A stretch of DNA of 64,000 nucleotides, taken from positions 612 through 64,611 of the forward strand of contig CAVVDW010000021.1 in the NCBI GenBank assembly GCA_963747175.1, written 5' to 3'. The number at the start of each line of letters is the position of its first letter. Within the stretch, counting starts at the first letter, position 1. Of the stretch, positions 26,662-29,440 are shown piece after piece. The stretch is from an uncultured Alphaproteobacteria bacterium (lineage in GTDB: Bacteria > Pseudomonadota > Alphaproteobacteria > Rhizobiales > Methyloligellaceae). Under the pieces are notes generated by a model. That model was given only the letters and a program-made list of their open reading frames with translations. It searched no databases and was not told the DNA's origin. Position numbers and translations under genes: made by a program.

Positions 26662-27118
26662 TTCGCTCGACCCCGAAAGCGTGACCCCGAGGCGCGGGAG
26701 CATGTACCCGGCGCCCTTCGGCGAGCCGCTCGCGGGCCGCGAGAAACGCGCGCTCGGCGATCCGCTCGGGCTGACGCAGTTCGGCGTCAACCTTACAACG
26801 CTTCGCCCCGGCGCCTGGTCGTCGCAGCGACATTGGCATGAGAACGAGGACGAGTTTGTCTATGTCCTTGAGGGGGAGATCACCCTCGTCACCGATGTCG
26901 GCGAGACGGTACTGCGTCCAGGAATGGCCGCCGGCTTCCCAGCTGGCAATCCTGACGGACATCATTTGATCAATCGCACTGACAAGCCTGCGCACTATCT
27001 CGAAATTGGAACGCGCCTGCCTACAGAAGTTGCCCATTACAGCGACATCAATCTCGGCGGGCGCAAGGAAGGCGGCCGCTTCGTGTTCACACGCAAGAAC
27101 GGCGAGCCCTATCCGTGA
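26654..27118 (+). CDS. Cupin domain protein
   Basis: LGLTQFGVN...SSQRHWHENEDE...GHHL.N. Confidence 0.88.
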   Translation: MGNSLDPESVTPRRGSMYPAPFGEPLAGREKRALGDPLGLTQFGVNLTTLRPGAWSSQRHWHENEDEFVYVLEGEITLVTDVGETVLRPGMAAGFPAGNPDGHHLINRTDKPAHYLEIGTRLPTEVAHYSDINLGGRKEGGRFVFTRKNGEPYP

Positions 27119-27429
27119 GTCCGCTCGGCACCATCGCAAGAGCGCCGCTTCTGGCGGCGATCGCGCTTTATCGCGTCACACTGTCACCGCTTGTCGGGGC
27201 GAATTGCCGGCATCTCCCGACCTGCTCGGACTATGCGCGCGAGGCCATCGACAAGAACGGCGCATGGAAGGGCGGCTGGCTCACGCTCGCGAGACTCTGC
27301 CGCTGCCACCCTTGGGGCAGCCACGGCTTCGACCCGGTTCCCGATCTTCGTGCCGAGCGTCATCCTTTAGCTCCGTGGCGCTACGGGAGATGGCGCATGC
27401 CTCGTGACATGAGGTTGAAATCCGGGTAG
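27115..27429 (+). CDS. yidD: Membrane protein insertion efficiency factor
   Basis: [13 protein letters not shown]...G...G.WL...R..RCHPWG. Confidence 0.92.
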
Positions 27430-27454
27430 AACGCTCGCCTTCAACCACCCCTTA

Positions 27455-27472
27455 CCTGCGCTGGTACGCAGG
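27455..27472 (+). promoter_or_regulatory. thrS leader hairpin with a tRNA-Thr(GGU)-like loop
   Basis: CCTGCG-CTGGTA-CGCAGG directly upstream of SD GAGGAG. Confidence 0.4.
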
Positions 27473-27490
27473 AGTGAGAGGAGAGACTCG

Positions 27491-29440
27491 ATGTCGCAAA
27501 TCTGCCTGACGTTCCCCGATGGTTCCGCCCGCGCCTTCAAGCAAGGCATCACGGGGCGCGACATTGCCGAGCAGATCTCCAAATCCCTTGCCAAAAAGGC
27601 CGTCGCCGTCCAGCTCGACGGCAAGACGCGCGACCTTGCCGAGCCGATCAAGGACAACGCCAAGATCCGCATCCTGACGCGCGAGGATAAGGAGGCGCTT
27701 GATCTGATCCGCCACGACGCGGCACACGTGATGGCCGAAGCGGTGCAGGAGCTCTATCCCGGCACGCAGGTCACTATCGGCCCGGTCATCGAGAACGGCT
27801 TCTATTACGACTTCGCGCGGAAGGAGCCGTTTACGCCGGACGATCTGCCGAGGATCGAGGCGAAGATGGCCGAGATTGTCGCTCGCGACCGCCCCTTCAC
27901 GTGCGAGGTGGTGGATCGCAATAAGGCGAAAGCGTTGTTCAAGAAGAAGGGCGAGACCTTCAAGCTCGAGCTGATCGACGCCATCCCCGAGGGCGAGGAG
28001 GTCAAGCTCTATTCGCAAGGCGATTGGCTCGATCTCTGCCGCGGGCCGCATATGACCTCGACCGGCAAGGTCGGCAAGGGATTCAAGCTGCTTAAGATCG
28101 CCGGCGCCTATTGGCGCGGGGATTCGTCGAAGCCGATGCTCCAGCGCATCTACGGCACTGCCTGGGCAAGCGAGGAAGACCTCAAGGCCTATCTCAATCA
28201 GCTCGAAGAGGCGGAGAAGCGCGACCACCGCCGCCTGGGGCGCGAGATGGACCTGTTCCACTTCCAGGAGGAAGCGCCCGGCGCCGTGTTCTGGCACGCC
28301 AAGGGCTGGGCGCTGTTCACCGCTCTGATCGGCTATATGCGCCGCCGCCAGAACCAATGGGGCTATGTCGAGGTCAACTCGCCCGACATGATGGAGCGGA
28401 CGCTGTGGGAGCAGTCGGGCCATTGGGAGAAGTTCGGCGACCATATGTACGTCACCGAGACGCCCGACGAGCGCATCTATTGCTGCAAGCCCATGAACTG
28501 TCCGGGGCACGTGCAGATCTTCAAGCACGGGCTCAAGAGCTATCGCGATCTTCCCTTGTGCATCGCCGAGTTCGGCAAGGTGCATCGCTATGAGCCGTCA
28601 GGCGCGCTGCACGGACTCTTGCGCGTGCGTCACTTCACGCAGGACGATGCGCATATCTTCGCGACCGAGGACCAGATCACAGAGGAATGCATCAGACTCA
28701 ATGAGCAGATGCTGTCGATCTATCGCGACTTTGGCTTCACCGATGTGCGCATCAAATTCTCGGACCGGCCGGAAAAGCGGGTCGGCTCGGATGAGGTGTG
28801 GGACAAGGCGGAACCTGCGCTCAAGCGCGCGGTGGAGGCGGCGGGTCTGAGCTACGAGCTCAACCCGGGTGAGGGCGCCTTCTATGGGCCCAAGCTCGAA
28901 TATGTGTTGCGCGACGCGATCGGGCGCGATTGGCAATGCGGCACGATCCAGGTCGATCTCAATATGCCGGGCCGGCTCGGCGCCTTCTATATCGGCCCGG
29001 ACGGCGAGAAGAAGCTCCCAGTGATGATCCATCGCGCCATGTTCGGTTCGCTCGAGCGCTTCACCGGCATCCTCATCGAGCATTATGCGGGTCACCTGCC
29101 GCTCTGGCTCGCGCCGACGCAGGCGATCGTCGCCACTATCGTGTCCGACGCCGACGACTATGCCGGCGAGGTGCTGGAGAAGCTGAAGAAGGCCGGGCTC
29201 AGAGCCGAGGCCGATCTCCGCAACGAGAAGATCAACTACAAGGTGCGCGAGCATTCGCTCGCCAAGGTGCCGGTGCTGCTCGTGGTCGGCAAGCTCGAGG
29301 CCGAGGAGAAGACCGTCTCGGTGCGGCGGCTCGGCTCGCAGAAGCAGGAGGTGATGAGCCTCGATGTAGCCGTGAAGACGCTTCTCGATGAGTCGGTGCC
29401 GCCTGATCTCCGCGAGGCGGCCAAGGCCAAGGCGGCTTAG
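27491..29440 (+). CDS. thrS: Threonine--tRNA ligase
   Basis: TGS domain, [40 protein letters not shown]. Confidence 0.98.

Follow-up and report, generated by a model that had tools for sequence, protein, structure and literature searches.

A single anticodon-like hairpin next to the thrS ribosome-binding site of Hyphomicrobiales, a probable operator for threonyl-tRNA synthetase

In Escherichia coli, threonyl-tRNA synthetase (ThrRS) binds anticodon-like hairpins in the leader of its own mRNA and prevents binding of the 30S subunit, and swapping the anticodon-like triplet for that of tRNA-Met brings the gene under the control of MetRS (PMC11088916, PMC9976931, PMC3858243). The leader consists of domains I–IV, and the operator uses two of its hairpins, II and IV (PMC11088916). 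The Shine-Dalgarno sequence (SD) of E. coli thrS is weak (PMC3858243). In the reviews cited here, the E. coli enzyme is the only bacterial synthetase described as autoregulating its translation by tRNA mimicry.

Autoregulation by synthetases through anticodon mimics has also been described for the yeast AspRS mRNA (PMC9976931), and further cases are yeast HisRS and ThrRS-RPC10 (PMC6542539, PMC9956033). The yeast cases resemble the arrangement proposed below in that an mRNA mimic of the anticodon stem-loop is bound by the cognate synthetase and translation is controlled. However, they are eukaryotic, involve other enzymes or targets, and have other architectures. In Bacillus subtilis, thrS is controlled by a T-box leader, which is compared with the present locus further below.

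The window, a stretch of 64,000 nt of DNA from an uncultured alphaproteobacterium of the order Hyphomicrobiales, contains the single thrS gene of the assembly:

27491–29440, plus strand: thrS, encoding a full-length bacterial-type ThrRS (assigned by Pfam and structure alignments); the proposed repressor as well as the regulated gene

The encoded protein has the Pfam domains TGS, tRNA_SAD, tRNA-synt_2b (the class II core) and HGTP_anticodon (anticodon-binding). Residues 6–625 of its 649 align with E. coli ThrRS in structure 1QF6 (708 bits), and residues 244–625 align with the core fragment in 1KOG; 1QF6 is the complex with tRNA-Thr and 1KOG the complex with the operator. A cupin gene and yidD (27115–27429) lie 5′ of thrS, with a spacer of 61 nt between yidD and thrS, and the gene on the 3′ side encodes a DUF488 protein rather than being infC.

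The spacer contains a 6-bp hairpin in which CCUGCG pairs with CGCAGG around the loop CUGGUA. Numbered as in tRNA, G34, G35 and U36 of this loop fall at −28 to −26, counted from the A of the ATG at 27491. The first-pass annotation of the window had pointed out this stem, its loop and the triplet just 5′ of the SD, and all of these coordinates hold. As a description of extent, it captured the upper stem and the loop. The full conserved element is larger, with 28 nt at 27451–27478, and the 6-bp hairpin is the top of a two-tier structure with a lower stem CUUA/UGAG, a bulge on the 3′ side, an upper stem CCUGC/GCAGG and the loop. Its parts are:

27451–27454, plus strand: 5′ strand of the lower stem, CUUA, pairing with UGAG at 27475–27478
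27455–27460, plus strand: 5′ strand of the upper stem, CCUGCG, a putative mimic of the anticodon stem, from its pairing and from cross-family covariation
27461–27466, plus strand: anticodon-like loop CUGGUA, with U33 at 27462, G34 at 27463, G35 at 27464, U36 at 27465 and A37 at 27466
27467–27472, plus strand: 3′ strand of the upper stem, CGCAGG, from its pairing with 27455–27460 and from covariation
27473–27474, plus strand: 2-nt bulge AG on the 3′ side, with the A near-invariant across families
27475–27478, plus strand: 3′ strand of the lower stem, UGAG, pairing with CUUA at 27451–27454
27480–27483, plus strand: SD GGAG, within GAGAGGAGAG (27476–27485), 7 nt 5′ of the AUG

The SD of the window is strong and unpaired, with GGAG inside GAGAGGAG, and the element ends 1 nt 5′ of GGAG and 12 nt 5′ of the ATG. 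Five bases of the loop, UGGUA, are identical to positions 33–37 of the tRNA-Thr(GGU) of the same genome, whose anticodon loop is UUGGUAA; that of the tRNA-Thr(CGU) of this genome is UUCGUAA. ARAGORN found 39 tRNA genes in the assembly, including those for tRNA-Thr(GGU) and tRNA-Thr(CGU). A gene for tRNA-Thr(UGU) was not found among them, which probably reflects the incompleteness of the 23-contig assembly.

Taken alone, the hairpin in the window is statistically unremarkable and barely more than would be expected by chance. Hairpins of at least 5 bp with a Y-N-G-U loop occur at 0.71 per kb per strand in the window, a rate that gives a chance of ∼3% of one such hairpin per 40-nt stretch. Nor is the fold unusually stable, with folding z-scores of −1.95 (35 nt) and −0.29 (131 nt). 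Both the frequency of similar hairpins and the unexceptional folding energy would suit a chance hairpin without function. That reading is refuted by comparative data, since 53 of the 59 families have the element, its stems covary and its position is fixed, so that we give it virtually no credence; it is the conservation among relatives that makes the element more than chance.

A nearly equal alternative fold was noted in the window. In the 35-nt segment at 27450–27483, the minimum free energy structure has CCUU (27450–27453) paired not with UGAG but with some of the bases around the SD (−11.7 vs −11.6 kcal/mol for the conserved fold). This possible fold would occlude the SD. Its 5′ partner, CCUU at 27450–27453, is not conserved outside the genus.

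For the comparative analysis, protein searches for ThrRS were run in 30 relatives and in 150 genomes sampled evenly from the order. They served to choose 89 thrS leaders from 59 families of Hyphomicrobiales, so that selection depended on the gene rather than on the motif. An alignment of the raw leaders with MAFFT and RNAalifold (A1) sets the 7-nt and 8-nt loop classes out of register, and its consensus of −0.4 kcal/mol is meaningless. It was replaced by an ungapped seed of 25 leaders (A2), which led to the covariance model R1. The model-based alignment (A3) contains 78 leaders; it is fitted to the model, so that pairing counts taken from it lean towards the model. In addition, 75 leaders were parsed by the two helices only, without any condition on the loop.

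The element is present in 78 of the 89 leaders, representing 53 of the 59 families. Its consensus reads CUUAC, CUGC, a loop of 7–8 nt, GCAG, (N)GA(N) and UGAG, followed by the SD. The unified structure consists of a 4-bp lower stem CUUA/UGAG with an invariant U·G pair, a 2-nt bulge on the 3′ strand (A, N), and a 5-bp upper stem in which the first pair is C-G, followed by an optional 1-nt bulge and by CUGC/GCAG. The lower-stem pairs C-G, U-A, U·G and A-U are kept in all 78 aligned leaders, and the linker (N)GA(N) is found in 74 of them. A reading of the GA bulge as part of a K-turn was rejected, as there is no GA on the opposite strand.

The first-pass annotation had suggested comparing thrS leaders across the order for a GU-containing loop and for covariation of the stem, and both were found. 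All 620 cells of A3 that should pair contain standard pairs (100%), with the lean towards the model mentioned above, compared to 23–59% in slid controls. Compensatory changes occur at four pairs, and the observed values were reached by none of 500 shuffles. They comprise U-A to C-G in 13 leaders, G-C to A-U in two, C-G to G-C or U-A, and a lower-stem change from U-A to C-G. Variants of the upper stem CUGC/GCAG include CCGC/GCGG (12 leaders), CCGG/CCGG, CCAC/GUGG, CUGU/ACAG and GCCGC/GCGGC; in one leader (L076), U-A replaces C-G at the base of the upper stem.

Three further leaders have a lower stem CCA/UGG instead of CUUA/UGAG. These leaders (L019, L045 and L082, from genomes of 5.6–6.8 Mb in two families) share the variant ACCAC-CCGC-loop-GCGG-GA(U/C)-UGGA-UAGGAG, which is missed by R1. 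Six families of the order are without the element; an alternative mimic was looked for there and none was found. Second thrS copies are also without the element. In one genome (G046), the second copy (L047, G046:C14:48086-48365) lies directly 3′ of yidD and is without the hairpin, while the first copy (L046) has it, and a second thrS copy is also found in G100, of the same family. The second copy in this family may be a paralogue that escapes regulation, perhaps one that confers antibiotic resistance.

The position of the element relative to the start of translation is also conserved. An SD-like GGAG, GAGG or AGGA starts 0–2 nt 3′ of the lower stem in 60 of the 78 leaders, and the distance from the end of the hairpin to the first in-frame start codon is 10–16 nt in 63 of the 78, with a mode of 12.

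The loop carries the threonine anticodon pattern. G35 and U36 are invariant in all 75 leaders parsed without a loop requirement. Position 34 varies freely (C in 34, G in 29, U in 12 and A in 3 of 78 leaders), and position 33 is U in 58, C in 19 and A in one. Loops such as CUGGUA, CCCGUA, CCGGUA and CUCGUA occur within the genus. NGU is the exact set of threonine anticodons, and G35 and U36 specifically are the carriers of threonine identity. A free position 34 with fixed G35 and U36 is the pattern predicted from the tRNA-Thr anticodon alone. Together with acceptor-stem base pairs, the anticodon nucleotides are identity elements of tRNA-Thr (PMC9976931).

The loop varies in length. Counting the first leader of each family, it has 7 nt in 32 families and 8 nt in 21. 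Most families have the canonical 7-mer N-Y-N-G-U-N-N, while an additional base is found at the 5′ side of the loop in this genus and in some others. In this genus the outermost loop bases pair as G-C, which leaves 6 nt, or 8 nt if the pair is open. The 6-nt loop described in the first-pass annotation is therefore correct for the window; this G-C-closed form is a feature of this genus and of a few others, and does not describe the remaining families.

Position 37 is A in 44, U in 20, G in 7 and C in 7 of the 78 leaders, and position 38 is A in only 3, whereas the tRNA-Thr of this genome has both A37 and A38. The enzymes of t6A synthesis read U36-A37, and G35 is not needed. The element could accordingly be imagined as a site for another factor that binds tRNA-Thr or the ANN-decoding tRNAs, such as the t6A37 machinery, which would tie thrS to tRNA modification. 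The invariant U36 and the prevalence of A at position 37 would fit such a factor; however, 34 of the 78 leaders have U, G or C where A37 would be expected, while G35 is invariant, and we know of no precedent for regulation of thrS by the t6A machinery. We regard this explanation as very improbable.

The element is closely linked to thrS. A search of this genome with R1 gave 26.7 bits for the thrS leader and 15 bits for the next best match, and the motif occurs there only once. A pattern scan of one genome for each of 185,579 species matched at least 120 stretches; among the matches listed, 115 lie within 160 nt 5′ of thrS, two are at contig ends and three are elsewhere. Named records among the matches listed include Hyphomicrobium, Ancylobacter, Rhodoplanes, Pseudolabrys, Pseudorhodoplanes, Hansschlegelia, Methylopila, Amorphus, Acuticoccus, Anderseniella, Methyloligellaceae, the diatom symbiont Ca. 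Tectiglobus, and Parvibaculaceae.

Outside the order, matches were found among 401 genomes of the class in two genomes of one family (Parvibaculaceae), both directly 5′ of thrS, and two further matches elsewhere in the same scan are chance. R1, applied with filters off to thrS leaders of 27 other alphaproteobacterial families, found no counterpart. Because those leaders gave none, the element is, on the sequences compared, a lineage-specific family and not a general alphaproteobacterial feature. A search of whole genomes with R1 gave no match in 151 genomes of the class, not even in the assembly of the window (G000), because a 41-nt model reaches only E∼0.003 per genome; this negative is thus uninformative. 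Hairpins with a Y-N-G-U loop 5′ of thrS in 29 other families of the class numbered three, compared to 1.9 expected from shuffles, and none of them adjoins the SD. The 29 class-level leaders from outside the order include one (L235) from a genome flagged as unpublished (G206), and the negative result is independent of it.

In a further family of the class, one leader (L231, genome G237) has the hairpin GCAUU-UUCGUAA-AAUGC ∼100 nt 5′ of thrS, with a loop identical to that of tRNA-Thr(CGU). This hairpin sits 5′ of a −35-like box, CTTGAC, and is probably outside the transcript; it may well be due to chance.

Among known RNA families, none corresponds to the element. An Rfam search of 26900–27800 at permissive thresholds (E up to 10) returned no family for it and two chance matches elsewhere, and no description of an alphaproteobacterial thrS operator was found in the literature searched.

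A candidate promoter lies upstream of the hairpin:

27404–27432, plus strand: candidate promoter, with a −35 box GTGACA at 27404–27409, a 17-nt spacer and a −10 box TAGAAC at 27427–27432

The −10 box overlaps the stop codon of yidD. GTGAC-N17-TA(A/G)AA recurs at this location in other thrS leaders of the genus, and it is this within-genus conservation alone that leads us to propose the promoter. TTGAC is found 40–80 nt 5′ of the hairpin in several other families, and promoter-like hexamers are found at this distance in about a third of the leaders. A strict sigma-70 promoter scan returned no match, the candidate at 27404–27432 included. It is possible that thrS has its own promoter inside the end of yidD, from which a leader of ∼50 nt would start ∼10–15 nt 5′ of the hairpin. 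Co-transcription of thrS with yidD is also possible.

A G+C-rich hairpin in the 61-nt intergenic space after yidD could in principle be a transcriptional device, such as the yidD terminator, an attenuator or a T-box-like riboswitch. However, no U tract follows the hairpin and a terminator scan was negative, the element is kept where yidD is not the upstream gene, and no Rfam family matches it at E up to 10, T-box included. A T-box resembles the element in acting in cis, as RNA, from the leader of thrS and in using the codon-anticodon logic of tRNA-Thr. It differs in binding tRNA through a specifier codon (ACC), in controlling a terminator or the SD, and in its size of ∼200 nt, whereas the element has 28 nt, too small for a riboswitch, displays the anticodon and not the codon that the specifier needs, and is without a terminator. 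A transcriptional role thus appears highly unlikely, slightly more so than a site for the t6A machinery.

The E. coli operator is the closest described system. In both cases a loop with the threonine anticodon is present in the thrS leader, and its G35 and U36 keep the anticodon register (−27 and −26 here; −32 and −31 in E. coli K-12). In both, a two-tier hairpin with extra unpaired bases on the 3′ strand is followed directly by the SD, with 12 nt to the AUG, and both enzymes are full-length ThrRS of one type that has the N-terminal domains. Domain 2 of the K-12 leader has a lower stem UUUGUA/UGCAAA, a U opposite CAC, an upper stem GUGAUCU/GGGUCAC and the loop UUCGUGU; its SD begins 1 nt after the hairpin, which ends 12 nt from the AUG.

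The differences are also clear. One hairpin is present here as opposed to two in E. coli, and no equivalent of domains III and IV was found. Nothing is conserved 5′ of the hairpin in alignment A1, so that a two-hairpin arrangement was not recovered, and the promoter-like hexamers 40–80 nt upstream, if correctly read, leave little room for a second hairpin. The upper stem has 4–6 bp here compared to 7 in E. coli, and the SD is strong here and weak there. The flanks CUUAC … GA-N-UGAG are near-invariant here and absent from E. coli, and the organisms belong to Hyphomicrobiales (Alphaproteobacteria) and Gammaproteobacteria, respectively. With filters off and E values up to 10 admitted, R1 found nothing in the thrS leader of E. 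coli K-12 (L254), and there is thus no sign of common descent. The likeness to the E. coli operator drawn in the first-pass annotation is therefore sound as regards position and does not extend to the two-hairpin architecture or to any detectable sequence relationship.

We consider it probable that the element at 27451–27478 is a ThrRS-binding translational operator of thrS, a single-hairpin variant of the E. coli operator. The similar autoregulation proposed in the first-pass annotation is thus supported: as in E. coli, ThrRS probably represses translation of its own mRNA, here with a simpler and unrelated one-hairpin design. Free ThrRS would bind the hairpin through its C-terminal anticodon-binding domain and would read G35 and U36 of the loop as in tRNA-Thr. 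The bound dimeric enzyme would then keep the 30S subunit off the ribosome-binding site, since the hairpin ends 1 nt 5′ of the SD and 12 nt 5′ of the AUG. When tRNA-Thr occupies ThrRS, the mRNA would be left free and ThrRS would be made. We infer the binding of ThrRS, the competition with the ribosome, the relief by tRNA-Thr and the start of transcription from the features described here; at the level of sequence, the element has everything that the E. coli mechanism requires, within one hairpin.

Several lines of evidence speak for an operator: the position 5′ of the SD, conservation established in leaders chosen by gene, the loop pattern, covariation, the link to thrS, a geometry and an enzyme like those of E. 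coli, and the fact that the mechanism is established in E. coli. Against it count the presence of one hairpin only, with no second conserved hairpin found upstream, and the strong SD, which could make competition with the ribosome less effective. Further points against it are the 6-nt G-C-closed (or 8-nt) loop of the genus, the sparse adenines at positions 37 and 38, and the six families and second thrS copies without the element. Finally, anticodon mimicry by itself does not account for the near-invariant lower stem, the U·G pair and the GA bulge. The lower stem and the bulge may form a second contact surface, or may serve another partner.

The same features could be explained by an element next to the ribosome-binding site that acts independently of ThrRS, for example a 5′ stabilizer hairpin, a device for ribosome standby or positioning, or a site for another protein or a small RNA, with the GU of the loop conserved for that partner. 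CUUA/UGAG, the U·G pair and the GA bulge, all of which lie outside the mimicry of tRNA-Thr, are more conserved than the loop, there is one hairpin only, and with a strong unpaired SD translation could proceed regardless. However, the element occurs only at thrS in this genome, and among the matches listed from the species-wide scan (at least 120 in all), 115 lie 5′ of thrS. Two invariant loop bases in anticodon register, with position 34 free, fit ThrRS, and we know of no other partner that reads N-G-U in a 7-nt loop and is specific to thrS. Independence from ThrRS is thus rather unlikely, though it deserves more weight than the t6A-related and transcriptional explanations.

The ThrRS operator may also be considered in a wider form, which we put forward tentatively and with considerable reserve. 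It would be an ancient operator, kept across nearly the whole order and arisen independently of that of E. coli, as a case of convergent tRNA mimicry. The invariant lower stem, the U·G pair and the GA bulge would provide another surface for recognition, contacted either by ThrRS beyond its anticodon-binding domain or by an additional factor, and one hairpin would do the work of the two in E. coli. A distinct and simpler operator in most Hyphomicrobiales would in any case mean that control by tRNA mimicry is widespread and evolved more than once, and the element would offer a minimal RNA of 28 nt with which to study the recognition of an anticodon mimic by ThrRS. It would also represent a cis-regulatory family missing from RNA databases, and its inclusion would improve the annotation of thrS leaders in thousands of genomes.

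Two groups of leaders show unusual arrangements downstream of the hairpin. In leaders from five other families (L031, L036, L042, L048 and L060), the hairpin is followed by a GAGAGGCGG-like sequence and an extra 26–42 nt, which folds into another small hairpin ahead of the first start codon in frame. Either translation starts elsewhere in these genes, or a module has been added between the operator and the ribosome-binding site. In L058 and L069, the hairpin and the SD lie ∼110–120 nt 5′ of the conserved N-terminus of ThrRS and are followed by an in-frame ATG; the ThrRS proteins of these two loci seem to carry an N-terminal extension of ∼35–40 residues.
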